Source: a virus
Lineage: Duplodnaviria; Caudoviricetes
Strand: one strand, 5' to 3'
IMG/VR virus record: IMGVR_UViG_3300019378_000951
Coordinates: 1-64,000 of that record
Length of the DNA: 64,000 nucleotides
The notes below the pieces were generated by a model. That model had not been told where the DNA came from, searched no databases, and saw only the letters and a program-made list of their open reading frames with translations. Of the stretch, positions 352 to 57,100 are shown in pieces; the stretch's first letter is position 1; every line of letters begins with the position of its first letter. The position numbers and the translations under genes were made by a program.

Positions 352-582
352 TATTACTTTGTAATTTTATTTTATTTCCTTAATTTTAATATTTAATTTG
401 TAATATTTAATTATTAATTTCAAATATATATTATTACTTTGTAGCAGAGTGTATGAACAAATTGTTACCTATAATTTTACGCGTATTATTACATCAAATT
501 TTAATTAAATTAGTGAGTGGAGGTATATAGTATGATGGAGTACAATAATAAAACTAATAATACCATGGGAGGGAATACAATT

Positions 583-1260
583 ATGTTTAACTATGATGAA
601 CTTACTAAAAAGATAAACGAGATAATGAATTTACAGAATATAGAGAATGCTAACGCTAATGTAGACGAAGCTAGTTTCTCAGGTAAGAATGAAAAAGCTG
701 CTGGATTATTACTTAAAGATTATGCACTTGACAATTTGATTGATCCTAAGATAGCTCAATATCATAGAGATGGAATATTATACACTCATGATCTAGACAG
801 ATATGCATCAGGTATGCATAATTGTCTTATAGTAGATTTTACAGATTTATTTGAAAACAATGGAGGATTTGCAACTAGAAATGGAGACGTAAGAAAGCCA
901 AATGGTATACAAGCATTTTTTCAATTAGTAGCAGTGGTATTCCAATGCGCATCGCAATGCCAATTTGGGGGGATAGGCTCAGCTAAAATTGATTATGAAG
1001 CAGCTCCATATGTTGCTAAAACATTTACTAAAAAGTATAAAGAAGCATTAATGGATTTATATGATCTAACATCAGAAGAAGCAAAAATTACTATGAAAAG
1101 AATAGAAGAAATTGGCATAGAGATAAGATTAGGAAATGAAAAATTAATAGAACATAACGAAAGATTATATAAGATAACTAAGAGACATGTAGAAGAAAGC
1201 GTTAAACAAGGAGCTGAAAGTTTATATCATAATCTTAATACACTTGAATCTAGACCAGGT
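583..1260 (+). CDS. nrdD: Anaerobic ribonucleoside-triphosphate reductase, exon 1
   Basis: NENANVD-like start, HDLD, HNC, QFGG, LYHNLNTLESRPG; RBS GGAGGG before ATG 583; joins in frame to SQVPFTSINFG. Confidence 0.93.
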
Positions 1261-2659
1261 CAAAAAACTTGTTTCTAAAGTTTTCACTTTCAATATAACA
1301 AATGTATATTATAGTATAGAATGTACAATATATATTGAAAGGATGATTATAATGAAAAAGAAAAATCTTGAATTTACTGATGAGATAATAAAATTGTATA
1401 AAGAGGGTCTTAGTTGTGAAGCAATATCTAAACATTTTGAAAAGAAATTTAGTGCAACACATGTACGAAATGTATTAAAAGATAATAACGTCCCAATGCG
1501 TACAAAAGGTGGTTGTACTGTAATAGACGAATCTATTTTAATAGATATGTATGTAAATCAAAAAATGAGTTTACAAGATATTGCTGATAAAACTGGTAGA
1601 AAGAGTTTAGAAAGTATAAGACAAATCATGATTAAAAACAATATACCTCTTAGAAACAGAGCAGCTCTTTCTAAAAAAGATACAACACTAAATGAAGATT
1701 TCTTTGAAATGATTGATACTGAATTTAAAGCTTATATACTTGGATTTTTAATAACAGATGGAAATGTATCTGAAAGAACTAATAGTCAACCAAGAATAAG
1801 AATACAAATTCATGATAAAGATGAATATATATTAGAAGAATTTAAAAAACAATTAAATTCATCCAATAAAATTAATCATTTCAATGAAGATAGACGAAAA
1901 AATCATGTAGAATTATGTGTTCATTCACAAAAAATGTTCGATGATTTGTCAAAGTATGGTGTTGTACCTAATAAGACTTGGAATACTTATTTGCCTGATA
2001 ATATACCTAATGATCTTATATCACATCTTATAAGAGGTATAATGGATGGTGATGGATGGATAGCTAAAAAAGATGCATTTATAGGATTTATTGGAACTAA
2101 TAAGTTAATGCATCAAATTAAAGATCAAATTCAATCTGAACTATCAATAGAAGGTAAGATATGTATTAAAAATGATGATACTGAACTATCAGAATTATGG
2201 TATGCTGATAATAATAGTAAAGAACTTATGTATCATTATTTGTACGATAATGCAAATTATTATCTCGTTAGAAAAAAAGATAATCTTGAAAACTTTTTGA
2301 AAGACAAGGGCCTACTAGACTAGGAATAGTCTAGTGTAATCGGGCAATATCGGTGAAGGCTAAGTCTCATAAGAGATATGCTAATACCGAGATAAGTATG
2401 AGAACTAAAGCGCTCATACCATCGTAACGCGTAGTAGGTGAACCTCGAAAGAGAATATAATCCTACCAAGAGTGTCCGACACATCATTCTGAAATGAGTG
2501 ATCGCTTAGGAGATTGGTCCTTAAGTGCCAAAATGGGTGAAAATGTACGCTGAGCTGGATCGGAATTGACCGGTCGTATACAGTTATATAAATGGGTGAC
2601 TGTAGATGAGTGAAAACTCCAGAAGATTTGGATAAAAAGCCAAATCGATAACACAACTG
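1261..2659 (+). mobile_element. Group I intron 1 in nrdD, with homing endonuclease in loop L1
   Basis: Exon ends in U (GGU), intron ends in G; P1 AGGU/C pairs with GGCCU at 2309-2313; P4 UCGGUG/UACCGA; P7 GCGUA/UACGC; splicing restores SRPG-SQVPF. Confidence 0.92.
1352..2323 (+). CDS. Intron-encoded LAGLIDADG homing endonuclease with N-terminal HTH repeats
   Basis: Two motifs, YILGFLITDG and LIRGIMDGDG; RBS AAGGA before ATG 1352. Confidence 0.88.
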   Translation: MKKKNLEFTDEIIKLYKEGLSCEAISKHFEKKFSATHVRNVLKDNNVPMRTKGGCTVIDESILIDMYVNQKMSLQDIADKTGRKSLESIRQIMIKNNIPLRNRAALSKKDTTLNEDFFEMIDTEFKAYILGFLITDGNVSERTNSQPRIRIQIHDKDEYILEEFKKQLNSSNKINHFNEDRRKNHVELCVHSQKMFDDLSKYGVVPNKTWNTYLPDNIPNDLISHLIRGIMDGDGWIAKKDAFIGFIGTNKLMHQIKDQIQSELSIEGKICIKNDDTELSELWYADNNSKELMYHYLYDNANYYLVRKKDNLENFLKDKGLLD

Positions 2660-3472
2660 TCTCAAGTTCCATTTACAAGTATAAACTTTGGTACTGATAC
2701 TAGTGCTGAAGGTAGATTGGTTACAAAAGCATTATTAGAAGCATCAATAGATGGTATTGGTAGATATCACAGAACAAGTATATTCCCAATATCTATATTT
2801 AAACATAAAAAAGGTGTTAATGATAAACCAGGAACACCTAACTATGATTTATTGCAACTAGCAATAAAATCGTTAACTAAGCGTATATATCCAAACATAG
2901 TTAATGTCGATGCTGATATATGGGCTAATCCAAGTTGTCCTGAAGAAGAAGGGGTAACAATGGGTTGTAGAACTATGTTAGGAAAAGATAGACATGGATT
3001 AATAGGTCCAGGCGGTAGAGGAAATCTAGCTCCAGTAACTATGAATTTAGTATATCTTGGTATTAAAAATGGTATATGTTTAGGTGAAAGAGAAGTTCCA
3101 GATGTAAACGGATTCTTTAGAGATTTAGAAGCTTTAATGTTAGATGCAGAAAAAGCTTTATTAGATAGATATGAATGGGTATGTAGTCAAAAAGCAAGAT
3201 CTGGACATTTTAGTTACGCTAATGGTATAATTAAGAATACATTAGGTAGAAAGTTAAAACCAGATGAAGAAGTTAGAGAATGTATGAAACATGAAACTTT
3301 AGCAATAGGATATATAGGAATAGCTGAATGCTGTAAAGCATTATTTGGACATACTCATGCTAAGAATAAAGAAGCATATGATTTTGCATTAAAAGTAGTA
3401 ACAAGAATAAATGCATTTACTAAAGAAGCTGCAGAACGTAATGATCTTAACTTCTCTTGTTATGCAACACCT
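2660..3472 (+). CDS. nrdD: nrdD exon 2
   Basis: SQVPFTSINFG, IFPI, MGCRT, GRGNL, IGYIG, YATP; 813 nt, in frame. Confidence 0.93.
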
Positions 3473-4478
3473 AAACAGTTGGGTCTTTAGCTTGAAAGGG
3501 CTATCGAATAACCTCGTTAAACGGGCTGAACGTAATAAGTTGGTAAGAAAGGCTAAACCTTTTTTAAAGGCAAGCTAACCCCGTAGGAAAGAATTTGAGT
3601 TTGTAAACGCCATATAACATATTTTTATAAATTACGCAACCCTAAGAAAGGATATGATAATATGGCAAGAAGAAAGTATGTTACTATAAGTATAGAAGAA
3701 GTTGGTGAAGATATAAAATTAATTAATATCGAAGGAAATTCAGATTATTATATAAGTAAAAATGGCAATGTATATAGAGAAATGGAACCGGGAAGATTTT
3801 ACAAGATGTCCTTAGATATTAATAAAGTTGGGTATAATTACATTGGATTAAAGCTAAATGGGAAAACTGTAAAAAGACGAGTTCATAGGCTTGTTGCATT
3901 AACGTGGATACCAAATCCTAATCCATCAATCAATACGATAGTTGGTCATAAAGATAATAATAAACGTAATAATTGTGTTGAAAATTTATATTGGACTACT
4001 ATATCAGAAAACACTCAAAAAGCATTTGATGATGGATTAATAGAAAATGTAAAAAGTTTTGATGATTCACAATCTCATACAATTATGGTTTATGATCTTA
4101 ATATGAATCTAATTGAAGTTTGTGGTTCGTCAAAAGAAGTCGATCGCAAGTACAAAGTTTCCCATACAACTGTAATGAGACAGTGCCAAGGCAAATTTAA
4201 AGGAAAACCAAGATGCGGTTATATTTTTAAATTTTTAGGATGGAACGATCCAACTTCACCAAATTTTGAAACAAACTCAAAGGAAAATCTCTAACGATCA
4301 TCGAAACCAATAAATGTAACCGACTTTATTAATAAAGTTGGAATAAGGTATACAATTTGTATACACGAAGGGAGTAGAGTAGGCTTTATTGCCGAAAAGC
4401 GAGGGTGCCAGTAGTGATATTGGTACGTGATATGATCTAAACCCCTAATGAAGTATCGGGAAACCGAGGGTTCAATTG
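3473..4478 (+). mobile_element. Group I intron 2 in nrdD
   Basis: P1 ACCU/GGGU with U-G pair; P7 GAUCA/UGAUC; terminal G; splicing restores YATP-AENLC. Confidence 0.92.
3662..4294 (+). CDS. Intron-encoded NUMOD4/HNH homing endonuclease
   Basis: YYISKNGNV, VHRLVALTWIPN, VGHKDNNKRNNCVENLYW; C-terminal DNA-binding-like region. Confidence 0.9.
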   Translation: MARRKYVTISIEEVGEDIKLINIEGNSDYYISKNGNVYREMEPGRFYKMSLDINKVGYNYIGLKLNGKTVKRRVHRLVALTWIPNPNPSINTIVGHKDNNKRNNCVENLYWTTISENTQKAFDDGLIENVKSFDDSQSHTIMVYDLNMNLIEVCGSSKEVDRKYKVSHTTVMRQCQGKFKGKPRCGYIFKFLGWNDPTSPNFETNSKENL

Positions 4479-4973
4479 GCTGAAAATTTATGTCATACAT
4501 TAGCTAAAACATTAAAATCTCAATTTGGTGTGTTAGAAGGAATAACAGATAGAGATTATATAACTAACTCTCACCATGTTCCAGTATATGAAAAAGTATC
4601 AATATTTAGAAAACTTGAATTAGAAGCTCCATTTGCTAAACTTGCTAATGGTGGTTATATAGCATATGTAGAATTAGAATCTACTGTAGTTAAAAATCAA
4701 GAAGCTATAGCTAAGATAATTAAGTATGCTATGGACTTAGGAGTAACTTATTTAGCATTTAATTTCCCAATAGACACATGTTTATCTTGCGGATATTCAG
4801 GAGAGATAGATCAAGACGAGTGTCCTATGTGTAAATCTGATAAGATAGAAAGACTAAGACGAGTTACAGGATACTTAACTACAGATTATCATAAATTTAA
4901 TAAAGGTAAAATTTCAGAAGTACATGATAGAGTAAAACATAGCAAGTATACAGATGATGAAGAATTATTTTAA
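4479..4973 (+). CDS. nrdD: nrdD exon 3 (glycyl radical domain)
   Basis: YITNSHHV, two CxxC pairs, RRVTGYL radical motif. Confidence 0.93.
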   Translation, partial: AENLCHTLAKTLKSQFGVLEGITDRDYITNSHHVPVYEKVSIFRKLELEAPFAKLANGGYIAYVELESTVVKNQEAIAKIIKYAMDLGVTYLAFNFPIDTCLSCGYSGEIDQDECPMCKSDKIERLRRVTGYLTTDYHKFNKGKISEVHDRVKHSKYTDDEELF

Positions 4974-7112: not shown

Positions 7113-7514
7113 ATGATAAGCATGCAAGAAGTTATAAATGAATTAACTATAGAAGATATAAAAGTATTAGGATGTGCTTCTGATTTGCCTGATTTCTATG
7201 AATTAATCATAGACTTACATGCTCATGTTGCAATAGAACCATATTCTAGAATTGCAATAGGATATGATACTGAAGCTAAAAAATTGCATATTATTGAATT
7301 TAGTGATAGTGACGAATATGAGGATATAGACGAGTTTGTGATTAAGGAATATACTGATTGCGAAGGTTATAAAAGTATCATAGTCGATCCAGCATTTGTT
7401 GATATATGCCATAGACACATTATGAAGGATATAAGAGAATTTATACAACTTACAGAAAATGATGAAAGAATTTTTAAATTATTAGACAGAGCAATTTTAG
7501 AATATATATTATAA
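7113..7514 (+). CDS. Small protein, C-terminal-tag paralog family
   Basis: IGYDTEAKKL; ends RAILEYIL. Confidence 0.75.
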   Translation: MISMQEVINELTIEDIKVLGCASDLPDFYELIIDLHAHVAIEPYSRIAIGYDTEAKKLHIIEFSDSDEYEDIDEFVIKEYTDCEGYKSIIVDPAFVDICHRHIMKDIREFIQLTENDERIFKLLDRAILEYIL

Positions 7515-7552
7515 AATTGGAATACATTAGATAATGGGAGGATAAGAACTGA

Positions 7553-8062
7553 ATGATAAAAATTGCTGGCGTGCAATTAGAAAGTGTAGTAGATGGATAT
7601 GGTATACGTAATACAATATTTACACAAGGGTGTAAACATCATTGTAAAGGTTGCCATAATCCAGAGACATGGCCAGTGAACGCAGGGAAGTTGTTTGATT
7701 ATGATCAACAAATGAAGTTTATAAACAACTCTAAAGAAAATCCATTAATAGACGGTTTAACTTTATCAGGTGGAGATCCAATAATACAAGCACATGAAGT
7801 GTTAAAATTTATTAAATTATACAAAAAAGAAATTCCACATCATAATATATGGCTTTATACTGGATACACATATGAAGAGCTAATATCGATGAATGATGAA
7901 GATGTAAATGGAATACTTGATATGATAGATGTGTTAGTTGACGGAAAATTTGTGATTGAATTAAAGACTTTAGATTATGTTTTTAGAGGCAGTAGTAATC
8001 AAAGATTGATAGATATGAATAAAACTAAAAATGATAATATTGTTTTGCTTAAAGAAAAGTAA
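7553..8062 (+). CDS. nrdG: Anaerobic RNR activating protein (radical SAM)
   Basis: VDGYGIR, CKHHCKGCHN (CxxxCxxC), LSGGDP, RGSSNQR. Confidence 0.95.
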   Translation: MIKIAGVQLESVVDGYGIRNTIFTQGCKHHCKGCHNPETWPVNAGKLFDYDQQMKFINNSKENPLIDGLTLSGGDPIIQAHEVLKFIKLYKKEIPHHNIWLYTGYTYEELISMNDEDVNGILDMIDVLVDGKFVIELKTLDYVFRGSSNQRLIDMNKTKNDNIVLLKEK

Positions 8063-12620: not shown

Positions 12621-13349
12621 CTAATATTTTGTTATCTTCTCAATAGGTGAGACTATTTCTTTTTCTCCATTTATATTTTTACGTATAGATGAAAGTATAG
12701 AATCATCCATATTTTCAAAAGATAATGCCGCGAATGTACTATTTATTGGTGGTAAATTTTTAACATTTGTCATTTTGTAATCTATATCTTTAGTTCCTTT
12801 GAAATTTTCACCTATTATTTTTCTAAAAGGAACGGATACATCATCTTTACTTCTGCATAATTCAGCAACTGTCATTTCAAGAATGCACCCAGGATTACCT
12901 ATGTTTACCTTATTTAATATAAGATTGTCAAAATATAATTTGATTATATCAGAATATGGTATTGTTGAAGGTAACTTATTACTGTGTAATGCAAATATGA
13001 AGTTTTTAGAATTAGCACCGCTTTGTTCTTTTTTGACGCTATCTAAAAACATCATACCATTTTGTAATATAAACACATAGTTGGGTTCAATTTCTTCATT
13101 AACTGTAACATTTTCGTTTCTATAATCGTCAAACTCAAATATTACATTCATTGGCAGTTTAAATGTGTGTTTTTCAATTTTTCCTTTTTCATCTAACACT
13201 TTAAACTCAAATATTCCTAATGTGCTTATTTTATTACCTATAAATTTAGCAACATTTTTATCAAAGTAATATTTAGGTATGTAGATTTCCATTAAATAAC
13301 CGTCAAAATAAATAGCATCATCTACTTTTTTTAACCATGAATATTTCAA
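12621..13349 (-). CDS. Phage multisubunit RNA polymerase, beta-prime C-terminal-like fragment
   Basis: STFAALSFEN resembles RpoC SFLSAASFQE; LEMTVAELCR resembles IEVIVRQM; likely TTG start after GGAGG. Confidence 0.65.
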   Translation of the reverse strand: MKYSWLKKVDDAIYFDGYLMEIYIPKYYFDKNVAKFIGNKISTLGIFEFKVLDEKGKIEKHTFKLPMNVIFEFDDYRNENVTVNEEIEPNYVFILQNGMMFLDSVKKEQSGANSKNFIFALHSNKLPSTIPYSDIIKLYFDNLILNKVNIGNPGCILEMTVAELCRSKDDVSVPFRKIIGENFKGTKDIDYKMTNVKNLPPINSTFAALSFENMDDSILSSIRKNINGEKEIVSPIEKITKY

Positions 13350-13441
13350 ATCACTAAACACCTCCAATATATAATCTTATGTTTCTTGATATGGTATTGT
13401 TTTATATAAACAAATTAAATTAATCAAGGATAGATTTAAAT

Positions 13442-14430: not shown

Positions 14431-15207
14431 CTATTTTTTATATAGTTCTATTAATTTATTAGTTATATCTTGTCTTAATGCATAGTTATTATCTAATATT
14501 TCTTTAAGGAACTTAGGTTCGCCCGGTGTTATCCCTAAATCTACATATGTATCTAATTCATCGAATATATTAAGTACCATCATGTTTGTAAATTCTTCTG
14601 GATCTCTCATCGTACTAGTCTTTACAAAATCATACATGTTATCTATATTTATCTTATTTATTATATCACTTATATGATATAATATTGTAGCTGTACTTTC
14701 ATTATATTTACTTACTAATGATTTGTATATATTATTCTTATTATTTATTTTATCTGAATATTCATACAAAATATTTTCAATTGAACCTAGTATCGTATTT
14801 ACTGCATAATTTACTATATTATCGTATATGTCAATTACCAAAAAATTATATAATTCAGTCACAACATGATGTTGTTCGTCTATCATTAAATTATCTCTAA
14901 AGTCTATTGTAAATTGATATTTTAATTGTAATTCGTCCAGTATTGTACTATAAAAATTATTTTTTATAGTATTTATCATTCTTTGCAATTTTTTATCATT
15001 ATAATATAATTCATTTATACTATTTAACCTCATTTGAAAACTTTCTACAAAATTATTATTATTTTTCTCAATATTTTTATTTAAATTTCTTATTTGTTCA
15101 ACAACATTGTCTTGTAATATATCATCTGATATACTTTCTGTTACGTCCACTCTTATTCTATCACTCATTACATCATTATTTCTTATCGTATTAAATATGT
15201 TGCCCAA
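14431..15207 (-). CDS. Hypothetical protein (late gene)
   Basis: 258-aa ORF with upstream AACA-N6-TA. Confidence 0.6.
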   Translation of the reverse strand: MGNIFNTIRNNDVMSDRIRVDVTESISDDILQDNVVEQIRNLNKNIEKNNNNFVESFQMRLNSINELYYNDKKLQRMINTIKNNFYSTILDELQLKYQFTIDFRDNLMIDEQHHVVTELYNFLVIDIYDNIVNYAVNTILGSIENILYEYSDKINNKNNIYKSLVSKYNESTATILYHISDIINKINIDNMYDFVKTSTMRDPEEFTNMMVLNIFDELDTYVDLGITPGEPKFLKEILDNNYALRQDITNKLIELYKK

Positions 15208-40603: not shown

Positions 40604-40623
40604 ATTAAATACCCCCTCTAATT

Positions 40624-42222: not shown

Positions 42223-45200
42223 TTATTTGTAAACTACATTTATATTATAATCATATTTTAAATATAGATTTATTCCGTCGTCTTGGCTATCATCATATTT
42301 TAATATTTTTTCGATATTTAAATATTCTGGTACATAATCATTTATTTCATCTGATGTCATATTATTAAAACCTTCAAATGCATTGAATATTTTTTGTGTA
42401 TCTTCACCTGCGACCTTTCCAAATTCAACATATTGAATTGAATCGAAATTAATTTCTAGCTCTCTTAAAAGATTTGATATTGCAAATAAACCAGTATGGT
42501 TACTCGCCTCAACAAAATCACTAATGAATTCTTTAATTATACTATCCTCATTATTGTCGATTATACGATTTGTATAAATAGTAAAATTTAAAGGAATTGA
42601 TGTAACATCAACGTAATCAAAATTTTCATATTTAAAATCTAAATTATTTGTATCCGTTACCCAATATTTTGAATATCCATATGTATTAGTAAATTTTAAA
42701 TCTAATGAATTATTATTTTCTAAAGTGTTAATTAAATCATAAGAAACCGTATCATATGCATCTAAAATATCTAAAATTTCATCATATTTTTGTTGAAAAT
42801 ATGAATACTCTATTAATGGCACCTGTTTAAGATCATAATATTCAGAAATCACATCTCCATCGCCATTTCTTAATTTAACAGGTAATATATCGCTATATGT
42901 ATAATTTTCTAAATTTTTAAATAATGATATTTCTTTAACATTGCTATATACACATGCTGTTGCGTAATCATGTACATCACTCATATAATCAAAATTTCCA
43001 TATTTAGTAATATCTGCATTGTCTTTATATAAAACCGCTATTTCTATATTTATATTGTCTGTTAAGAAAACTGCTGCAGTTTCGCCGCCTTCTAAATTTT
43101 TTGGATTCTCAAGCTCATATAATGACCCAACTGTCATAATCTCTTCATTTTTATTTATAATATCTCGATAAGTTACAATATCAGCTGCATATTTAAAAGA
43201 GTCATCAATACGTTCCATTTCTAAACAACCTTGAACTTCACCATGTTTATCATATACTATCATTCTGACTTTACATTTTGCATCTAACTCATCGATAGTT
43301 AAATTTGTATTAAGGTCTACAGTTATATCGTATATTTCGGAATTTATATCAACATTTGGTTTTTTGTCTATTTGAATATTACCAAATGTAAAATTTCGGT
43401 CTACAAAATTATTAACATGAACTAGTTGTAGTTTATATAGTTCATACATTGAAGTAATATAATAATTACATTTAAGTATAGGAGAATCTATTATTTTCAA
43501 TGTATATGGTATGGCATAAATTATAAATCTTTTATCTAAAAGATAATCATCTGAATTGCATATAAAAGAATATTTATTTGCTTCACATATAACTGCATCT
43601 TCTATATTAATATTATTATTTAATCCTAAATTTAAATTTGAATTTTTTATATAAATTGTATACTCATTTTTGTTACATTTTATAATAGGCCATTCTAATA
43701 AAAAATCATCTTTTATTAGATCAACTTGGTTTGATATTGTATCGTGTAATAATATTCGACGATTTATTCTTGTTCCGTCTATAGTTATTTTATATTGAGT
43801 TTCAACTAACATATCATCTTTATTTTTTTCATAATACTTATAGACGCCTTCTACAAAATCATACATAAAATCTAAATTTTGAGATGTTTTTTCTATTATA
43901 AATTTATTGTCTAAATCAACGCTTATCATATTATTTTCAAATAACATAAATTTGTCATTTACTCTGTCATATAATACTTTAGAATTATCTCTAATCATAC
44001 CTTTAGCATGATCTTTTAAAATATTTGCAAATCTGTCATCCATATTTTCATGTATTTTAATTGGTTCGTCTAAATATTTTTTACTAATTAACAAATGAGG
44101 GGCTGTATTTGTAGGTATTATTTTACCTCCTCTTTCTCTCATAGTAATATAACCTGTAAATATGCGTCTTAATATATCATTTCTTTTTTTAAAAAATTCA
44201 ACATTAGAACCATTGACTGATGTATTTGTATTAAAATTTGTAAAATAATAATTTAAGTCTGTATCGGTTATTATATTTTTACGGGTAAGCATAGCTTCTG
44301 TAATTTTATTTTTTAGTTCTGTAGTTGTATACCTATTTTTACCACCTGCAGAGTTTGTTATTGGAGTTACTTGCACGCCCATATTTGAAAATTCATTAGT
44401 ACTTGAAAAATTTACGTCTACAGTTCCAGTGTATGTAAAGTTACCAGCTTCTCCATATGTAGTATACATTACTATTTCAACTTCACTATTTTTACGAGGT
44501 CTAAATGAGTTGCTATCAGCTCCAAAAGATATTTCTAAAGTAGACCCCATAATAGCATAATGACAAAATGGTAATCCGCTAGAATCAGAATACTGATTAT
44601 TTTGATAACTCTTAATTTTAGTTTTTACTCCATTATATATGTAATAAACCTCGATATATGCAATTTGTCCAGTAAATGAAGTAGTTAAGAATAAGTTATC
44701 TAAATAATTATTGCTAGTTATTGAAAACGTTGTAGATTTTTTATATAGTTGATATAGATCTATACCTATAAAAATATAATCCCCATCAGTTGTAGATTCG
44801 TTCCAAGTTTTTAAATAAGGATTATTTGTGACTTTTAAAAATGGGAATACGTCTTTATCAGTATCATATTTTACAGATATAGAATACGATCCAGTTATTT
44901 CATTTTCTTTTATTATAAATTGTAAATCATATGGTAATCTAAATGGTATTTGTTCTATTGAAAATACGTAATCTTTACTTATTGTTAATATATAAACTTT
45001 TCTAGCAAAACCTTCAAGTGTTGTATCTATTGATTGTATTGGCTTTTTTAATGGTGAATTTATAATATCATCTCTACGAATTGCAAGAGTTGCTCTCATT
45101 TTTGCAGGAATAGCTAATTCCATATCAACATTTGTTAATTTAGCAAAATTTGCAATAGATTCAGGAAATGATGCGGTATTTAAAAAATGTTCATCATATA

Positions 45201-45390
45201 ACACATTTCTATGATAAACATTATTTTTAATTTCGTTGCTTTGTATTTCATTATTGTAACCGAATAAACCAGCTTTAAGCATATTAACTGCTACTTCATT
45301 TTCAGGATCTATTCTGAAATATTTAAGTGCTATTTTAAACCATTCATCTTGAATGGGATAGCTGGAAGCCCCTACTTTAATATTTGCCAT
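42223..45390 (-). CDS. Putative baseplate wedge protein (gp6/J-like)
   Basis: FLNTA, LEISFG, YTTYGEAGN, SAGGKN. Confidence 0.65.
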   Translation of the reverse strand: MANIKVGASSYPIQDEWFKIALKYFRIDPENEVAVNMLKAGLFGYNNEIQSNEIKNNVYHRNVLYDEHFLNTASFPESIANFAKLTNVDMELAIPAKMRATLAIRRDDIINSPLKKPIQSIDTTLEGFARKVYILTISKDYVFSIEQIPFRLPYDLQFIIKENEITGSYSISVKYDTDKDVFPFLKVTNNPYLKTWNESTTDGDYIFIGIDLYQLYKKSTTFSITSNNYLDNLFLTTSFTGQIAYIEVYYIYNGVKTKIKSYQNNQYSDSSGLPFCHYAIMGSTLEISFGADSNSFRPRKNSEVEIVMYTTYGEAGNFTYTGTVDVNFSSTNEFSNMGVQVTPITNSAGGKNRYTTTELKNKITEAMLTRKNIITDTDLNYYFTNFNTNTSVNGSNVEFFKKRNDILRRIFTGYITMRERGGKIIPTNTAPHLLISKKYLDEPIKIHENMDDRFANILKDHAKGMIRDNSKVLYDRVNDKFMLFENNMISVDLDNKFIIEKTSQNLDFMYDFVEGVYKYYEKNKDDMLVETQYKITIDGTRINRRILLHDTISNQVDLIKDDFLLEWPIIKCNKNEYTIYIKNSNLNLGLNNNINIEDAVICEANKYSFICNSDDYLLDKRFIIYAIPYTLKIIDSPILKCNYYITSMYELYKLQLVHVNNFVDRNFTFGNIQIDKKPNVDINSEIYDITVDLNTNLTIDELDAKCKVRMIVYDKHGEVQGCLEMERIDDSFKYAADIVTYRDIINKNEEIMTVGSLYELENPKNLEGGETAAVFLTDNINIEIAVLYKDNADITKYGNFDYMSDVHDYATACVYSNVKEISLFKNLENYTYSDILPVKLRNGDGDVISEYYDLKQVPLIEYSYFQQKYDEILDILDAYDTVSYDLINTLENNNSLDLKFTNTYGYSKYWVTDTNNLDFKYENFDYVDVTSIPLNFTIYTNRIIDNNEDSIIKEFISDFVEASNHTGLFAISNLLRELEINFDSIQYVEFGKVAGEDTQKIFNAFEGFNNMTSDEINDYVPEYLNIEKILKYDDSQDDGINLYLKYDYNINVVYK

Positions 45391-45436: not shown

Positions 45437-46735
45437 TTACATTTGCCACAATGAGATATTAGGTGGTAACACATCGCCTGTAACTATTTCATTTTTATTA
45501 TCTTGAACATTAGGTATAACTGTCACATCATTAATTGTTGCATTATTCCCATATAAATATTCTTGAGTAGAATTTGATGATATACTTGAACTACTATCGC
45601 TGTAATTACTTTTTGTAGGCTCTGAAATAGTTCTATCTGTATCAAACACCAATTTAAACCCATAGCCACCAGTTTCAGGTTGATAAGAGATTACTGTTGG
45701 ACATACTGAACTTTTAAGACTGCCAGATATTAAATCATCCGCTTTTTCATTCATACCGTTTTCATCCCAATCCATAGTTATTGGAACTGAACCGACTATT
45801 CTATTGAAATCTCTTAATATAGCTACAGACATATCTTCTTTATAACAATATGAGTAATTTATAGTTATATCAGGAACTTCATGACTAGTAAGATCTCCTC
45901 CTAAAGAACTATATGGCACATTTAATGGTGCTACACCTGTATACTTAGCCCAGTATTTAATAGTTTCACCATCAAAATCACAAAGGATATAATAAATACT
46001 AGCCATATAATCAATAAATCCATCGTCTAATGCATTTCGACTAGGTATAAATTGACCCCTTCTTACTTTTTCAATATAATCTTGCCATGCTTTATGCATT
46101 TTTAATATTGGAAGATTTGTCATTTCTAAATATTTAATACTAATTTCATCTCCAACAATACTATCTACTAAACTACCTGGATGTACTTGTTTGTAACCGT
46201 AAAATGTTTCTCCTACTTCTTTAGTTCTTGCAACAGTGTCCTTAATATCAATACTAAGTGCAGTATTTGTTATGAGAGGTATTAAATCGCAATTCTTACC
46301 TCCAAGATCACCAAATAATGTATCAGTATAATTTTCATTTGTAAGATGTCTTAATATTTCTTTATTTTCGTTAGTGGATGTTGCCATATAAGTTAAAAAA
46401 CTGTCTGTCGATACATTAGCTTCACACAAATTTAACACAGGACCTGTCATAAAAACATATGGTATGCCTTTAACAAAAAAGTTTATATTATCATTTTGTA
46501 ACCTTTGAAAGTTAAAATTTGTTATAAATGCAACCTCGTCTATATCAAAATTTCCTACTGACTCTCTTAAACCAATTAAATCGTCATCAGTAATTTCATC
46601 TTCACCATTTCTTTCACCTAATGGTTGTTTAGTTGTAGTGCCAGGATGTTTATAATTAAGTTCGTTATTAATTGGAGCTTTTCCAGCCCCATTATTATCA
46701 ATATCGTTCAAAAAAATCACCCCCAAAAATTTCAT
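45437..46735 (-). CDS. Putative tail-tube-like baseplate protein
   Basis: YVFMTGP.LNL, H.AW..YI, YWAKYTGVAP. Confidence 0.5.
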   Translation of the reverse strand: MKFLGVIFLNDIDNNGAGKAPINNELNYKHPGTTTKQPLGERNGEDEITDDDLIGLRESVGNFDIDEVAFITNFNFQRLQNDNINFFVKGIPYVFMTGPVLNLCEANVSTDSFLTYMATSTNENKEILRHLTNENYTDTLFGDLGGKNCDLIPLITNTALSIDIKDTVARTKEVGETFYGYKQVHPGSLVDSIVGDEISIKYLEMTNLPILKMHKAWQDYIEKVRRGQFIPSRNALDDGFIDYMASIYYILCDFDGETIKYWAKYTGVAPLNVPYSSLGGDLTSHEVPDITINYSYCYKEDMSVAILRDFNRIVGSVPITMDWDENGMNEKADDLISGSLKSSVCPTVISYQPETGGYGFKLVFDTDRTISEPTKSNYSDSSSSISSNSTQEYLYGNNATINDVTVIPNVQDNKNEIVTGDVLPPNISLWQM

Positions 46736-46830
46736 TAATAATGTTGTTGTATAATATTAGATTGTTACGATATATTTTACAAATTTAAGGTTTATTAACA
46801 TACTAATAATTTTTTAAGGAGACAATAATT

Positions 46831-46983
46831 ATGGATAAAAAAGTAAGATTTGTAAATATTATTAATATAGAAAAATTAAAAGAAGAATTAAAAAATGAAA
46901 TTAAAAATGAATTAATATTAGAATTTTGGAATATTTTTAAGAAAGAAGATATAATTGATCTAACGGATGATACTAAAGAATAA
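46831..46983 (+). CDS. 50-aa hypothetical protein
   Basis: RBS AAGGAG and AACA-N6-TA at 46797. Confidence 0.45.
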   Translation: MDKKVRFVNIINIEKLKEELKNEIKNELILEFWNIFKKEDIIDLTDDTKE

Positions 46984-47064
46984 ATTAGTAATATTAAAAG
47001 TGATAGTATAACAAACAATCTAATATTGAAAATTTTTTATAAAGTAATGGAGGTTAAAGAAACT

Positions 47065-50126: not shown

Positions 50127-50154
50127 TAGAGAATAACCATAAGGTTATTCTCTA
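50127..50154. terminator. Bidirectional hairpin terminator
   Basis: tagagaataacc-ataa-ggttattctcta. Confidence 0.65.
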
Positions 50155-50913
50155 TATTAATACTGACAGCAATCCTAATATAAGATTAAGATTATTATTG
50201 TGTATACAATACTTCATCATTGATTCATCAATACTGTCAATTTCCATTAAATTGTCATTATAAGTATTGATTATATAACTATTAAATACTAAATCTTTAT
50301 AGTACCCTACAGGCAATTCAAATTCAGTAAATTCACTTTTCAAATATATTAAATCGTCTATATAATCATCTACACTGTTTAATATCTTACTAAATATCTT
50401 TTTACAATCTTTCATTAAGTAATTCATATGATGTTCAACTGCATCCTTATTATAACCTTTAACATCTAATATATCCTTTATCGGATCATAGTAAAATTCT
50501 TTACCTAATATATTCGCATAAAATATATATGAGTTTTTAGGTCTAAATTCAATATAATCTCCGAATTTAGTTTCTTTACAAGTTTTAGTTGTAAATATTG
50601 CATCTTTCTTTATACTTATAATATCTCCATCTTGTATATCGTTATATTCAAAGAATGCTTGTCTAGCTTCTATAAAACCATTCATTAATTGCCTACCTAG
50701 TTGTGGTTTATCTTTTATCATTTTACCTATTGTAATAGTTCTATCTTTCTTACTCATTGATTCTAATAACTGTAATTCAGAATTACTTAAATACTTTCCT
50801 TCTCGTAGTATACTGTATCCACCTTCTTTCATGTCGTATTCAGTAATTCTAATATTACGTACTAATGTTACAGGTGCTGTATAATTGTGTTTATGATACA
50901 GTACACTCGCCAT
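50152..50913 (-). CDS. Small divergent DNA polymerase palm-like protein
   Basis: ITEYDMKEGGYS (motif A-like) and ISIKKDAIF (motif C-like). Confidence 0.5.
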   Translation of the reverse strand: MASVLYHKHNYTAPVTLVRNIRITEYDMKEGGYSILREGKYLSNSELQLLESMSKKDRTITIGKMIKDKPQLGRQLMNGFIEARQAFFEYNDIQDGDIISIKKDAIFTTKTCKETKFGDYIEFRPKNSYIFYANILGKEFYYDPIKDILDVKGYNKDAVEHHMNYLMKDCKKIFSKILNSVDDYIDDLIYLKSEFTEFELPVGYYKDLVFNSYIINTYNDNLMEIDSIDESMMKYCIHNNNLNLILGLLSVLI

Positions 50914-50923
50914 TTTATACCTC

Positions 50924-51217
50924 CTAATCTAATATAATTTCAGCAGCTAAACGTTTTTTTAATTTGTCACTTATTAGTTCTAGTGGTATCTCCCTACCAG
51001 TTATCTGTTCTATCCATTTTTCTCTACCATTAAATGCGTTATATGTGATATGAGATAACATAACAGCTTTACCTTCACAAACTATTACCATAAATGGTTT
51101 AAACATTATTAAATAATTGTCCTCATATTCCCCCTTATCAAAATGATAAAATTTCATATCGATTGTTATAGGTTCATCATTAAGTAAGTACGTATACTTA
51201 CTTTCTTTTATTATCAA
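50924..51217 (-). CDS. Hypothetical protein
   Basis: Ends KRLAAEIILD (tag-like). Confidence 0.5.
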   Translation of the reverse strand: MIIKESKYTYLLNDEPITIDMKFYHFDKGEYEDNYLIMFKPFMVIVCEGKAVMLSHITYNAFNGREKWIEQITGREIPLELISDKLKKRLAAEIILD

Positions 51218-51251
51218 TGGAATCAGTCCTCTTTCTGTCTGTAATTATTAG

Positions 51252-51800
51252 TTAGTTTTTGTTTATACTTTTAAAATATCTATTGAAGAATGTTATAATT
51301 TTATCTCTGACTTCTTCAACAGTTTTATACTCAGGTGGGTTATGGACAAAACATAAATTCATTACTTCCATTATATTCCATCTTTCATTCATAATATATG
51401 AGATATCTCTGTTCTGTCTTTCAACTAATTGTCTACTATCTATCATTACAATTATATAATCAATTCCACACTTGTCTAATGGGAATTGATTTATAAAATC
51501 ATCAATTCCCATTTTGTTAAGAATTATAGTATTATACTTACCATCAACCAAATCAAATATAGTACCGTATCTTTCTCCATTTATATTAGTGCGACCTATT
51601 AAATTATCTTTAATTTCATCATATTCATCTTGTGTAACGAATTTATACGGATCTCCTTGTTTTTCTCCTTCTCTCATAGGCCTAGTGCTTACTTGTTGCA
51701 ACTTATGAAATTCATTTGGAAATTTTTCTGATAATAATTTTTCTATCATCGATTTACCACTTCCTGATGGACCAGCCACTATTATAACCTTTTTATTCAT
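51252..51800 (-). CDS. gmk: Guanylate kinase
   Basis: GPSGSGKS; STRPMREGEKQGDPYKFV; YGT. Confidence 0.85.
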   Translation of the reverse strand: MNKKVIIVAGPSGSGKSMIEKLLSEKFPNEFHKLQQVSTRPMREGEKQGDPYKFVTQDEYDEIKDNLIGRTNINGERYGTIFDLVDGKYNTIILNKMGIDDFINQFPLDKCGIDYIIVMIDSRQLVERQNRDISYIMNERWNIMEVMNLCFVHNPPEYKTVEEVRDKIITFFNRYFKSINKN

Positions 51801-51863
51801 AATTATTACCTCCCATTGATTTAATTATAATCATGGGTTAATTTAAAAATTATCTTTAGTTAA

Positions 51864-52241
51864 TTATAATTGATAATCTATTATAACTCTATCAAATAAT
51901 TTTGGTATGTCATCTACAGAATTAATAAATTCAGTATAACTTTTAAATAAAGATGTTTGCATCGATAATTCTCTGGCTATAGAATCAGTTACTTCTATAT
52001 TATTCCTAACAATTCCTAACATTCCATTTCCCATAGTGTCAGTAGTATATTCATAACAAAATAATTCATCGTTTTCAGTTAGATAAGTTTCTAATCCATA
52101 TATCTTAGATTCAGGGACATATGCTATATATCCATTACATAAAGCACATCCATTTTCACTAAGTTTAACATACTTTATTACAAATACTGTTTTATCATTA
52201 TTGCAATCTTCAACTACCAAATCATAATTTCCAAATCTCAT
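51864..52241 (-). CDS. Small protein, C-terminal-tag paralog family
   Basis: IAYVPESKIYG; ends RVIIDYQL. Confidence 0.7.
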   Translation of the reverse strand: MRFGNYDLVVEDCNNDKTVFVIKYVKLSENGCALCNGYIAYVPESKIYGLETYLTENDELFCYEYTTDTMGNGMLGIVRNNIEVTDSIARELSMQTSLFKSYTEFINSVDDIPKLFDRVIIDYQL

Positions 52242-52260
52242 AAAATACCTCCTAATTTAA

Positions 52261-52623
52261 TTAAAAATTATTGTTACATCTGTAAGGTTCGTATAAACTA
52301 ATTTCTTTTTTACCATTTTTATATTCTTTGATTAGTATATCATGTTTTACAAATATATTATCATTAGGGAATTCAACATTTTGTAGATGTTCTAGATAAA
52401 ATTTCTTTTGATCTGATATAACATATTCTTCACCATCGTATTCAAAAGTTATATCACATATTGAAGGTATCATTGCAGTTTTATATATGTCGCCTATTAG
52501 TAAATCTGGAATTAATACTGTTTCAGATGGTACATAATACACATCTACTATTCTTAAATTTGCATCTTTTACTATCTCTTTTTTAACAACTCTATTAAAC
52601 CATCCAAATAATTTCATATTCAT
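52261..52623 (-). CDS. Hypothetical protein
   Basis: ORF with RBS. Confidence 0.55.
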   Translation of the reverse strand: MNMKLFGWFNRVVKKEIVKDANLRIVDVYYVPSETVLIPDLLIGDIYKTAMIPSICDITFEYDGEEYVISDQKKFYLEHLQNVEFPNDNIFVKHDILIKEYKNGKKEISLYEPYRCNNNF

Positions 52624-52629
52624 ACCCTC

Positions 52630-52836
52630 CTAATAATTATTATATATTAATTCTATAACTCTTCTAGCATCATCTTCGTTTTTAAATTTAAATGTTACGC
52701 TAGAATTACAATGTCTAAAATGTATACATACATTTGAAAATTTTTTCGTAGTTACATCTGTTACTAATATAGCCGACAATACTTCTTTAGCATTAATAAC
52801 CATTAAATTATCATTAATATCTTTAAATTTAAACAT
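52630..52836 (-). CDS. Hypothetical protein
   Basis: ORF with RBS GGAGG. Confidence 0.55.
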   Translation of the reverse strand: MFKFKDINDNLMVINAKEVLSAILVTDVTTKKFSNVCIHFRHCNSSVTFKFKNEDDARRVIELIYNNY

Positions 52837-52876
52837 AATATACCTCCTAATTTAATTTAAGAGAATAACCTTAAGG

Positions 52877-53290
52877 TTATTCTCTGTTAGGTTTAACTAA
52901 TTTAAATTCTGCAGCTTCTTGAGCTTCCTCTTCTTCTAAATCTTTAAGCATATCTACTTCAGTCATAGCATTCATATATTCTTCCATATGTTCTTTATCA
53001 TAATCATCTGCTATAACTCCAACGTATCTTCCTAAATATTCTCTTCTATAATAATTATAATTCATTATCTGTTGTATTATCTGTTCTTTAGTAAGACCTT
53101 TTTGAAATAATGTTTCTATTATTGATCCTTCTAATGTAAATGCAGCTTGCATTAAATCCCAGTCATTAAATTGGCTATCTGCAACTATATTAGATTGCAT
53201 TGGGTGACCGTTTATTCCTAGTCCTATACTAAAATAAATAGGTTTGTTGACATCCATACTTTGAGCTTCATTCATTTTGTTTTCTTCCAT
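52877..53290 (-). CDS. Hypothetical acidic protein
   Basis: ORF with RBS GGAGG. Confidence 0.6.
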   Translation of the reverse strand: MEENKMNEAQSMDVNKPIYFSIGLGINGHPMQSNIVADSQFNDWDLMQAAFTLEGSIIETLFQKGLTKEQIIQQIMNYNYYRREYLGRYVGVIADDYDKEHMEEYMNAMTEVDMLKDLEEEEAQEAAEFKLVKPNRE

Positions 53291-53339
53291 AATAAATACC
53301 TCCTAAATTTAATTTTAATACCAAATTAATAATATATAG

Positions 53340-54062
53340 TTAAATATTATTTACAATTTTTAAAATAAAATTGTAAAAATCATCGTATTTTTTATCAAAT
53401 ACTTTAAAATAATTAAAATTAGATTTTTCTAATAGTTTATCCTTAACAGTTTCTATAGCTATATCTCTTGCTCTATAATGTTTATTATCTGAACTTTTAA
53501 TTTCTATAATTAGATTAAGCGAAGGAATATATACATCTGGAATGTAAAAATGCTCTTTTCCTTCATATTCATATTTAAATACTTGAGGAGCTGGAGATAT
53601 TATATCTTTACTACTCCACTGCATAAATATATCCATAAATTCTAGGAACTCATGTTCATACGTTCCAGTATAAGTAAATATAGTTCCATCAGACCATTTA
53701 TATTTACCACTTATTTTGCGATTTTCTAACATTTTCTTTTGTTGATCAGGATCATTAAGCAAATGAGTTTTACCGTAAGTTTTCATCATACGTTCTCTGA
53801 ACTGTTTTTTGTAAACTTCTTTACATTTTTCCGAACATAATCTATCATATCGACATACTGCGTCATTCCATTTAGTTTCTTTTTTACATATAACACATTG
53901 ACCACTAGATTTATGATTAACTGTATTAAAATAAAATTGTTGAACTGACATACCTTGAGGTATTAATTCTGTATGTTCTTTTAATATATGGTTATATAAT
54001 AATTCTTTTTTTATATATTTTGATTTACAAAAAGGGCATTTAAATATTTTATTTCCATTCAT
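53340..54062 (-). CDS. C2H2 zinc finger plus TnsA-like PD-(D/E)xK nuclease
   Basis: CPFC...H...H; CVIC...CSEKC; YIPDVY...IIEIKS. Confidence 0.7.
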   Translation of the reverse strand: MNGNKIFKCPFCKSKYIKKELLYNHILKEHTELIPQGMSVQQFYFNTVNHKSSGQCVICKKETKWNDAVCRYDRLCSEKCKEVYKKQFRERMMKTYGKTHLLNDPDQQKKMLENRKISGKYKWSDGTIFTYTGTYEHEFLEFMDIFMQWSSKDIISPAPQVFKYEYEGKEHFYIPDVYIPSLNLIIEIKSSDNKHYRARDIAIETVKDKLLEKSNFNYFKVFDKKYDDFYNFILKIVNNI

Positions 54063-54120
54063 TTCATTATTTCACTCCTTTTTAACATATTCATATTAGA
54101 TTGTTAGGGGGTTAAAAAAT

Positions 54121-54927
54121 ATGAAATATTTATTTGAAGACTCAGATAACTCATTCCAATCAATTAATAATCTCGATTTATTAATTGAAGAGGAAGAAGT
54201 TTTATCTGCTAAAGTGCAAAGATGGGCACAAGAATCCGCAAATACGGCTAAATTTAGTTTAAAACAGAAATTAGGACAAATAATTGTAAGAATTAAATCT
54301 TTATTTGGTATAAGAACTTTCGGCGGAGGTAAAGGAAATGTAAAAATTTTAGAGGACATTTCTGGATTTAATAGACTGATTAGGTTTATACAAAGTACAA
54401 CAACATACAAAGTTGCACATTTTGGCCCGAATAATGTTGTATCATATTCAGGAAATATAAATTTAGTAAATACTTATTTAATTAATAAAGGAAATATACA
54501 TGCTAAAAAATTGCATGCATTATATGAAACTATGAAAGGGGAAATGAATTCTAAAGAAGCTAAGCTTGCAAGACACGCTGCCAGCAATACGAAATCAATA
54601 CGTGTAACTAATGAAAAAACATTTAGAATCTATATAGTTCCTTTTATACGTAATATGTTAATAGCTACTAAAAAATTAAATGTTATGATAACAAAAATGT
54701 ATAAATCTTTTGAAAATTTAGTTTCTCATTATAGTACTATAATGAGAAAAAATAAGATGGACAGATCATCAACTACAACATATCATCAAAAAAATGATTT
54801 AACTGCTAGATGTATCACATATGTGGCGTATGCTAATAAATTATTAATTACTACGTGTGAAAATTTATTAGACAAAATCAATAGAATAATAGAGCATTAT
54901 TATAATGCATTTGCAGAAAATAATTAA
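54121..54927 (+). CDS. Putative internal head protein
   Basis: Acidic propeptide (LFED, LIEE, AQES), basic mature part; late promoter at 54084. Confidence 0.5.
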   Translation: MKYLFEDSDNSFQSINNLDLLIEEEEVLSAKVQRWAQESANTAKFSLKQKLGQIIVRIKSLFGIRTFGGGKGNVKILEDISGFNRLIRFIQSTTTYKVAHFGPNNVVSYSGNINLVNTYLINKGNIHAKKLHALYETMKGEMNSKEAKLARHAASNTKSIRVTNEKTFRIYIVPFIRNMLIATKKLNVMITKMYKSFENLVSHYSTIMRKNKMDRSSTTTYHQKNDLTARCITYVAYANKLLITTCENLLDKINRIIEHYYNAFAENN

Positions 54928-55464: not shown

Positions 55465-56760
55465 ATGAATGAAAAAGATATAAAAAATAAAATGATGGAT
55501 GATATGGATACATTACATGAAATGTTAGGTATAGAATACGATCCAGAAATACCAGTAAACGATGAGGAAGATGAAGCAGCTCAATTTGCTAAATGGAAAG
55601 CTGAACAAGCAGCTAAGAAAAAAGTTAAAAAACAAGAAATACAAGAACTTCCAAGTTTTAAAGAATCATTACAGCCTATGACTGTTCATGAAGAAAAAAA
55701 ACCTAAAGACGAAGTTGTAAAAAAAGAAGAAAAGAAAGTCGAAAAACAAAAAACAGCTGCAGAGCAATTAGAAGAAAAAAATAGAAATGTTAAAAATAAA
55801 TTAGCTAATATAGAAATAAATGTAGATGAAATAGAAATAGTTGAGCACCCTAAAGGTTTAACTCAATTCGATGATTATAATATATCTCTTGGAATGGGTT
55901 CCACTGCAAATCCTACATATCAAGTTGTATGTAACCAAAGTTGTTACGTAGCTAATATGAAGGCTATAAATTATGGAGATGCTATAGCTATAGCTAACTC
56001 TTCAGCGTCTGCATACCAAGAAAGAAGTAGAATATATAAATTATTATATGATAAATGTGAAGCTTTTTCAGTAGGAAGAATAAGTTTTGATGATTTCTTA
56101 AGAATAACTTCATTTTATGATGCAGAAACATTAATGTTTGGTATATATCAACAATCATTTCCAGGCACTACTGAATTCCAAGTTCAATGTGGTTCTTGCG
56201 GAATGCAACATAATATGAAATTTCAAAATGAAGAATTTATCGCTGTGAAAGATGAAGAAGTTTATAAAAATATACAAGATACTATAGCTTCATGCTCTAA
56301 TCCAGAAACTGCATTAGCAAATTCTATTGTTAATAAAACTACTAGAAAAATACTGCCAGATAGTAAAGTTATAGTAGACGTGGCTATACCTAGTTTAAAA
56401 GACAATTTAGATTTACTAGGTAGAGTTAATCCTAAATTACTAGAAGCTAATAAAGAAGTCATATCTTTAATGATGTTTATTAAAAATATATACATGTTAG
56501 ACACTAATAAAACTGTAACACTGGGTAAACCATGCTATTACAAAATGGAAAAGGATTTATCATCAGTAAGTAAACTGATAAAAGATTTAACTATAAATGA
56601 CGCTAGAGAATTAGGAAAAGTTATACAAGATAAATCAGATAAACATGGTATAGTATATCAATTAAAAAATCATAAATGTCCTAATCCAGAATGTGGTAAA
56701 GATCTTGGAGAAATACCTGTAGATATTGAAAAATTACTTTTTTTCAACATGCTTCAGTAG
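55465..56760 (+). CDS. Baseplate hub assembly protein, gp26-like
   Basis: CGSC and CPNPEC; terminal PVDIEKLLF; follows the gp25-like gene. Confidence 0.55.
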   Translation: MNEKDIKNKMMDDMDTLHEMLGIEYDPEIPVNDEEDEAAQFAKWKAEQAAKKKVKKQEIQELPSFKESLQPMTVHEEKKPKDEVVKKEEKKVEKQKTAAEQLEEKNRNVKNKLANIEINVDEIEIVEHPKGLTQFDDYNISLGMGSTANPTYQVVCNQSCYVANMKAINYGDAIAIANSSASAYQERSRIYKLLYDKCEAFSVGRISFDDFLRITSFYDAETLMFGIYQQSFPGTTEFQVQCGSCGMQHNMKFQNEEFIAVKDEEVYKNIQDTIASCSNPETALANSIVNKTTRKILPDSKVIVDVAIPSLKDNLDLLGRVNPKLLEANKEVISLMMFIKNIYMLDTNKTVTLGKPCYYKMEKDLSSVSKLIKDLTINDARELGKVIQDKSDKHGIVYQLKNHKCPNPECGKDLGEIPVDIEKLLFFNMLQ

Positions 56761-56768
56761 ATGGACAA

Positions 56769-57023
56769 ATGGACTTAAAAATGAAAAACAAGCTAGATGC
56801 TACGCATATAGTTTATCTGCTTGAATTATTTGAAGGTCGAATATCTACTACTGAAATACTTGATAGAATACCTATAAATTTACTACTAGAAATGCAAAAA
56901 ATAAAAGAGGAACAAATCGAAAAACAAAACAGAGAAATTGCTAAACAACGAGAAGTTGCGGCGCAACGCAATAATAATAAAGGTGGTATAATTACAAATA
57001 CTGGAAAACGCCGTTTTGATTAA
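56769..57023 (+). CDS. Hypothetical protein, possibly gp51-like assembly factor
   Basis: Position after the gp26-like gene. Confidence 0.4.
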   Translation: MDLKMKNKLDATHIVYLLELFEGRISTTEILDRIPINLLLEMQKIKEEQIEKQNREIAKQREVAAQRNNNKGGIITNTGKRRFD

Positions 57024-57100
57024 ATAAACATCTAATCTGTAATAAGGATTGCTATATAGCAATCCTTATCAAACAGATTATTAAGATAGACTGGAGAGAT

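Follow-up and report, generated by a model that had tools for sequence, protein, structure and literature searches.

The AACA-N6-TA motif, in the following called the late box, lies ahead of genes in a stretch of phage DNA of 64,000 nt (the window). It is very probably the late promoter of the phage's own non-virion multisubunit RNA polymerase (RNAP), read by a putative specificity subunit that resembles gp226 of Bacillus phage AR9 and is encoded at 60374-61789. The window represents the first 64 kb of a single IMG/VR record of 216,390 bp (IMGVR_UViG_3300019378_000951; Duplodnaviria, Caudoviricetes; 27.5% GC), which is partial. It encodes a tail sheath protein, a major capsid protein, gyrase A, a GroEL-type chaperonin and a member of an "RNA polymerase" PHROG. 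The original prediction, which was based on 17 late boxes, had proposed AR9-type transcription for this phage. This proposal can now be made with high confidence, and it was borne out by the published late consensus, a gp226 homolog in AR9 gene order, the AR9 early promoter and an AR9-like division of gene classes.

The late box is enriched upstream of genes

All 17 late boxes were found at their positions and on the predicted strands, each being followed at 20-80 nt by a plausible start codon that has a Shine-Dalgarno sequence. This included three doubtful sites (-20572, +46797 and +47014), each of which precedes a real start codon. Four likely sites had been missed (-13390, -28901, -42201 and -54094). 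A further match at -17555 overlaps a Shine-Dalgarno sequence and is probably due to chance.

The claimed strong enrichment was true only for a part of the DNA. The whole window contained 78 matches versus 96.7 +/- 9.9 in shuffled sequences, a slight under-representation, and the earlier background estimate of about one match per kb and strand was thus fair. As enrichment was absent at the level of the whole window, strand-aware tests were used, for which the intergenic DNA was divided into strands that precede the adjacent gene and have its orientation ("upstream-sense") and all other strands. After correction of three gene calls, 22 matches were present in 5,206 nt of upstream-sense intergenic DNA of the window, a seven-fold excess over the 3.1 +/- 1.7 matches expected from a Markov null (maximum 9 in 200 simulations), as opposed to a single match on the remaining intergenic strands (5,060 nt). 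For the whole record the respective numbers were 43 versus 13.1 +/- 3.3 (maximum 23 in 300 dinucleotide shuffles) and 5 versus 10.3 expected; over all genome-wide counts the two sets ranged from 43 to 46 and from 4 to 5 matches. The comparison with shuffled intergenic DNA that had been suggested along with the prediction therefore confirmed the excess on upstream-sense strands.

The motif is also specific in its internal layout. On upstream-sense strands of the whole record a spacer of six nucleotides was found 43 times, while spacers of five and seven yielded 5 and 13 matches. The 3' dinucleotide TA had 43 matches and the next best dinucleotide 13. Permutations of the core with the same letters gave at most 19 matches, with the exception of the same box shifted by one base. 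The extended logo of the late box is AACA-W-W-N3-W-TA-T. The final A is located at a median distance of 27 nt from the start codon, and the distance of the box to the Shine-Dalgarno sequence and start codon ranges between 17 and 80 nt. AR9 served as a positive control, and the identical pipeline yielded 74 versus 7 matches with the same spacer profile.

A gp226 homolog and further subunits of the non-virion RNAP

The late promoter of AR9, A(-11)ACA-N6-T-A/G(+1), is read on the template strand by a five-subunit non-virion RNAP with gp226 as specificity subunit (PMC7598289, PMC9209446). A search for a gp226-like protein, which had been recommended with the original prediction, uncovered a full-length homolog in the window (Table 1). 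Its only match in the PDB was the AR9 chain 7S01_A (E = 8e-64), and phiKZ chains were not matched. The local gene order GroEL-gp227-gp226-primase is the same as in AR9. In AR9 gp226, V206 of the 2.1bis helix sterically excludes the methyl group of thymine at -10, the exchange V206G leads to acceptance of T, and the valine is conserved in phages with deoxyuridine (dU) in their DNA. The helix is kept in the homolog, with equivalents of V206, I207, W208 and Y210, and all 13 aligned gp226 homologs, six of which are metagenomic, share the thymine-excluding valine.

Homologs of the beta-N, beta-C and beta'-N subunits of the non-virion RNAP were found elsewhere in the record, and R363 and N382 of beta-N are conserved. 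A query with gp226 against viral contigs did not reveal any related loci.

Early boxes and the division of gene classes

A second motif, the early box ATATTAT-N5-TG (ATATATTAT-N5-TG), is identical to that of AR9, whose annotated early promoters read AAATATATATTAT-N5-TG. In the whole record it occurred 23 times on upstream-sense intergenic strands versus 0 times on the other intergenic strands, and its N5 spacing was specific. Early boxes directly precede the genes for gp226 and beta-N, as in AR9, and also the beta-C gene, and late boxes precede the virion-RNAP genes. Two uncultivated relatives (L021 and L022), with gp226 proteins that are 51% and 57% identical, have retained the early box ahead of gp226, and L022 has also retained syntenic late boxes.

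The genes were classed as virion/structural or non-virion by their AR9 orthologs. Late-box operons contained 32 genes with virion/structural and 21 genes with non-virion orthologs, versus 0 and 14 genes in early-box operons (Fisher p = 3e-5, a test that counts non-independent genes; p = 0.018 if restricted to the first genes). Among the 32, four are in reality intron-encoded homing endonuclease genes with a late box of their own. Judged from the sequence, the promoter classes divide the genes by the logic of AR9, with the virion RNAP being late and the non-virion RNAP being early.

By analogy to AR9, the following transcription program can be envisaged. The virion-packaged RNAP would enter the cell together with the DNA and would transcribe the early genes from ATATTAT-N5-TG. 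The early products would include subunits of the non-virion RNAP, i.e., the gp226 homolog, beta-N and beta-C. The assembled five-subunit enzyme would then bind the late box on its template strand (in AR9, 3'-UUGU-N6-AU-5') and initiate at the final A. The resulting leaders of about 27 nt, equipped with a Shine-Dalgarno sequence, would precede the genes for capsid, tail, terminase, prohead protease, virion RNAP and intron homing endonucleases. The start site at the final A, the reading of the template strand and the requirement for uracil are adopted from AR9.

Table 1. Promoter boxes and selected genes in the window. Late boxes that were missing from the original prediction are designated "added".
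Feature	Position	Strand	Context
Late box	456-467	+	before nrdD exon 1 (start 517/532); early box 428-441 lies 15 nt upstream
Late box	1297-1308	+	43 nt before ORF 1352-2323, between nrdD exons 1 and 2
Late box	3616-3627	+	34 nt before HNH homing-endonuclease-like ORF 3662-4294, between nrdD exons 2 and 3
Late box (added)	13390-13401	-	tandem with 13372; before AR9 gp125 virion-protein homolog 12621-13349
Late box	13372-13383	-	22 nt before AR9 gp125 virion-protein homolog 12621-13349
Late box	15237-15248	-	29 nt before 14431-15207, AR9 gp123 homolog
Late box	17575-17586	-	27 nt before large-terminase exon 1 (16900-17547)
Late box	19010-19021	-	36 nt before tail-fiber-like gene 17645-18973
Late box	20572-20583	-	42 nt before ATG 20529, prohead-protease homolog exon 1; back-to-back with 20589 (+)
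Late box	20589-20600	+	27 nt before 20628-21404
Late box	22178-22189	+	80 nt before major capsid gene 22270-24018
Late box (added)	28901-28912	-	19 nt before small ORF 28696-28881
Late box	33171-33182	-	31 nt before homing-endonuclease ORF 32114-33139, inside virion-RNAP subunit gene (AR9 g079-like)
Late box	35447-35458	-	38 nt before 34239-35408 (AR9 gp052 homolog); heads operon with virion-RNAP pieces
Late box (added)	42201-42212	-	41 nt before 41347-42159, AR9 gp211 homolog
Late box	46755-46766	-	before AR9 gp213 virion-protein homolog 45437-46711
Late box	46797-46808	+	22 nt before 50-aa ORF 46831-46983 (AAGGAG Shine-Dalgarno)
Late box	47014-47025	+	39 nt before ATG 47065, AR9 gp214 minor virion protein homolog
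Late box	54084-54095	+	25 nt before 54121-54927; 2-nt overlap with minus-strand box 54094
Late box (added)	54094-54105	-	31 nt before 53340-54062, AR9 gp233 homolog
Late box	57072-57083	+	20 nt before 57104-57409; syntenic box kept in relative L022
Early box (ATATTAT-N5-TG)	428-441	+	before nrdD
Early box	7506-7519	+	34 nt before 7553-8062
Early box	29254-29267	-	28 nt before 29008-29226
Early box	41320-41333	-	heads operon 35502-41262 including gyrase A (36392-38842)
Early box	53322-53335	-	heads operon 50152-53290 including guanylate-kinase-family gene 51252-51800 (AR9 gp238 homolog)
Early box	60320-60333	+	41 nt before gp226 homolog; same in AR9, BpSp, phiR1-37 and relatives L021 and L022
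AR9 gp226 homolog	60374-61789	+	sigma-like promoter-specificity subunit; 33% identity over full length, E 5e-66
AR9 gp227 homolog	59567-60295	+	family reported exclusive to uracil-DNA phages
AR9 gp212 homolog	42223-45390	-	904-aa family reported exclusive to uracil-DNA phages
nrdD	652-4940	+	class III (anaerobic) ribonucleotide reductase; three exons, about 652-1338, 2660-3472 and 4479-4940

Affiliation of the phage and size of its genome

Relatives of the capsid protein and the RNAP-associated protein were restricted to 21 phage records (tblastn against phage records), namely AR9/PBS1 and their kin, Bacillus pumilus phage BpSp, Listeria phage LPJP1, the Staphylococcus S6/Machias group and Yersinia phage phiR1-37. 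Exactly this set is treated as the uracil-DNA jumbo phages (PMC10303552). No relative at the nucleotide level was found among phage records. By its sequence, the phage is an uncultivated, deeply diverged new member of the AR9/PBS1 jumbo-phage clade and not a new kind of system.

An identical gp226 gene was present on an ENA contig of 329,814 bp (ERZ27248457, k141_283997), which begins 17 nt before the start of the record and was 100% identical over the 6.6 kb compared. Because of this overlap the 216 kb record must be only a part of the phage genome, at least 113 kb (at least a third) being missing. The full genome is thus probably at least 330 kb in size, and the CheckV completeness estimate of 84% for the record is probably too high.

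Evidence on uracil in the DNA

In view of the invariant thymine-excluding valine and the presence of a dCTP deaminase of the PBS1 type, it is likely that the genome contains dU in place of deoxythymidine (dT). The "dCMP deaminase" of AR9/PBS1 is biochemically a dCTP deaminase that produces dUTP (PMC12697855). The search for a dCTP deaminase, another suggestion that accompanied the original prediction, yielded a homolog of the Dcd_PBS1 type at positions 195384-195905 of the record. The protein of 173 aa has 51% identity, contains all 11 published metal and substrate residues and lacks a C-terminal extension; its specificity is predicted. Furthermore, homologs of four protein families reported to be exclusive to uracil-DNA phages are present, two of them listed in Table 1. 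The relatives of the capsid protein and gp226 are confined to the uracil-DNA clade, all tested members of which have dU-DNA (PMC10303552).

The predicted absence of thyA and dUTPase was also found, insofar as thyA, thyX and dUTPase are all missing from the 216 kb partial record. It carries little weight, given that the record leaves out at least 113 kb. A uracil-DNA glycosylase (UDG) and a thymidylate kinase are likewise not encoded in the 216 kb.

Several observations weigh against uracil-DNA or against the proposed reading of the late box. The searches for a UDG inhibitor and a dTMPase, which had been put forward as further checks, were unsuccessful. No match to Ugi was found in the 216 kb record, and the same was true for Dtm (NT5C-like), HD-type Dtm (YfbR-like) and HAM1-type Dtt. 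A search with Dtm_PBS1 returned only Bacillus-type relatives, none of which was on a contig of about 330 kb. In beta-N, the equivalent of K375, which in AR9 hydrogen-bonds the -10 uracil, aligns to an Asn beside a gap of two residues. Portal, DNA polymerase, DnaB, GyrB, ligase, the beta'-C subunit of the non-virion RNAP and many other proteins are absent from the partial 216 kb record. In addition, the genes were called by a simple model of ORFs (open reading frames) and Shine-Dalgarno sequences, and the operon-level test suffers from the dependence of genes noted above.

Alternative explanations

It is possible, but unlikely, that the boxes are late promoters of a gp226-type polymerase in ordinary thymine DNA, the enzyme reading T at -11 and -10. 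The negative searches for a UDG inhibitor and for thymidine-clearing enzymes in the 216 kb record and the lack of conservation of K375 would agree with this explanation. At 33% identity to AR9 gp226 the geometry of the pocket could differ, and in AR9 the single change V206G is enough for the acceptance of T. However, the valine is invariant in all 13 homologs including this one, the active site of the PBS1-type dCTP deaminase is intact, and neither thyA, thyX, dUTPase nor thymidylate kinase was found in 216 kb. Moreover, dU-DNA is common to all members of the clade that have been tested. The known Ugi proteins come solely from members that infect Bacillus, and dU phages of other hosts also lack a known UDG inhibitor (PMC10303552).

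The remaining explanations concern the nature of the box itself. A -10-like element for a sigma factor of the host, e.g., a sporulation-type sigma of a Firmicute, is very improbable. With its short, AT-rich sequence the motif has a loose resemblance to some alternative-sigma -10 elements of Firmicutes, but conserved -35-like positions are missing upstream of the boxes. The -10 element of sigma-K is CATA-N3-TA, and the spacing of the late box is one base off this form. In contrast, the motif is identical to the mapped promoter of the AR9 non-virion RNAP, and the phage encodes the cognate subunit as well as both multisubunit RNAPs. Still less credible is a signal at the RNA level, i.e., a processing site or a translation element in the 5'-leader without promoter function. 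The location on the sense strand close to start codons would be in line with it, but the distance to the Shine-Dalgarno sequence or start codon is very variable, the box heads operons and is not found ahead of every gene, divergent pairs occur in shared intergenic regions, and the AR9 promoter that is matched has mapped start sites. Lastly, the whole-window count below the shuffle mean would fit chance matches in AT-rich DNA. This explanation can practically be dismissed: it was ruled out by the strand-aware, the spacer and dinucleotide and the permutation counts, the seven-fold excess being found only on upstream-sense intergenic strands, and box type is associated with gene class. A late promoter of the non-virion RNAP is therefore the preferred interpretation.

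Further features of the promoters and the genome

At positions 54084-54105 a plus-strand and a minus-strand late box point toward each other with an overlap of 2 nt. This places the predicted start sites on adjacent bases (54095 on the plus strand and 54094 on the minus strand), and each box is part of the leader of the other. In relative L022 the face-to-face layout is kept (at about 600-640), with 7 nt between the boxes. In the most distant gp226 relative (L020; ERZ4223250, a contig of 133 kb with 33% GC), which has 26% identity and has kept the valine, neither an AACA nor an ATATTAT box was found near the genes. Promoter sequences may thus differ in deeper branches.

Four homing-endonuclease ORFs interrupt RNAP genes, one in the window (32114-33139) and three elsewhere in the record (91746-92735, 135730-136800 and 206873-207865). 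Each has an AACA-N6-TA of its own 23-31 nt upstream, and therefore late expression is predicted for them. The homologs of the prohead protease and the large terminase are each split (positions 19879-20040 and 15273-17547), and the segment between the protease pieces resembles a group I intron core.

The word AAATTAAA was found 66 times on upstream-sense intergenic strands versus 5 times on the others throughout the genome (e.g., at 40604-40623, 52837-52860 and 53291-53315), mostly in the form TTAAATTAAATT just ahead of GGAGGT. It may represent an extended ribosome-binding leader or a leader that is specific for early genes. The guanylate-kinase-family protein encoded at 51252-51800 (minus strand) within an early operon has 36% identity to AR9 gp238, and it is tempting to regard it as a candidate for the PBS2-induced dUMP kinase, the gene for which is not yet identified.

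No tRNA genes were found in the window. At positions 166811-188510 of the full record four giant tape-measure-like paralogs are encoded behind a single late box at 166774. Each has a different terminal wall-hydrolase domain (M23, NlpC/P60, phage tail lysozyme and VgrG3-like).

nrdD and the host

Ahead of nrdD, the gene for a class III ribonucleotide reductase, the two promoter types occur in tandem (early box at 428, late box at 456), which resembles the continuously expressed class of AR9. The intervening segments of the region 517-4973 carry the ORF 1352-2323 and the HNH-like ORF 3662-4294, each with its own late box. An anaerobic host is plausible, for which the intron-split class III NrdD and the lack of a class I or II enzyme in the 216 kb record are the sole indications. 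Phages of facultative anaerobes can carry NrdD as well. Other sources did not give any hint of the host: a query of genome contigs with NrdD exon 2 revealed no related loci, and host-specific wall-binding domains were not found in the giant hydrolases. In one relative a radical-SAM gene adjoins gp226. The combined proposal of a dU-DNA jumbo phage whose genome comprises at least 330 kb and whose host is strictly anaerobic has about even chances of being correct.

Comparison with known jumbo phages and implications

The likeness to AR9/PBS1 (Takahashivirus) comprises the identical AACA-N6-TA core with its strict spacer of 6 nt, the identical early promoter, the gp226 ortholog with the 2.1bis helix, the local gene order, and the placement of early boxes before non-virion RNAP genes and of late boxes before structural and virion-RNAP genes. 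In contrast, the proteins are just 33-51% identical. Position +2 is mixed in AR9 and is T in 35 of the 43 late boxes of the new phage, and the TG variant, which is common in AR9 (19), is rare (4). Further differences are the Asn aligned to K375 of beta-N, the class III NrdD instead of the class Ib NrdEF of AR9, the lack of recognized Ugi and Dtm homologs in the 216 kb partial record, and a genome of probably at least 330 kb versus 251 kb.

The phages S6/Machias, LPJP1 and phiR1-37 have the capsid, the gp226 family and the invariant valine in common with the new phage, and they also have no recognizable UDG inhibitor. Yet they are more distant than AR9 (gp226 20-25% identical). In phiR1-37 an identical early box precedes the gp226 gene; this phage clears thymidine with a HAM1-type dTTPase, an enzyme type that was not found in the 216 kb. 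The phiKZ type (Chimalliviridae, with a non-virion RNAP containing gp68) shares two split multisubunit RNAPs and the division into early and late genes, but it has the late promoter TATG at the start site and thymine DNA, and gp68 is devoid of sequence similarity to gp226.

The AR9-type split family-B DNA polymerase formed 117 protein clusters in metagenomes, many of them on contigs of 150-306 kb, and thus the AR9 clade extends far beyond what the cultured phages would lead one to expect. None of these clusters, which were obtained when the DNA polymerase of the new phage was searched for toward the Dtm neighborhood of AR9, was on the 329,814-bp contig.

Taken together, the transcription program of AR9 has remained intact in an uncultivated relative in spite of only 33-51% protein identity. 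This applies to the consensus of either promoter as well as to the sigma-like subunit with its uracil-selecting valine. The relative also carries an anaerobic ribonucleotide reductase. The boxes provide a map of operons and timing for the annotation of the genome. If its DNA indeed contains dU, uracil-genome phages would be known from a wider range than Bacillus, Staphylococcus, Listeria and Yersinia, and the combination of early box, late box and a valine-bearing gp226 would be a sequence-only marker for uncultivated uracil-DNA phages in metagenomes.

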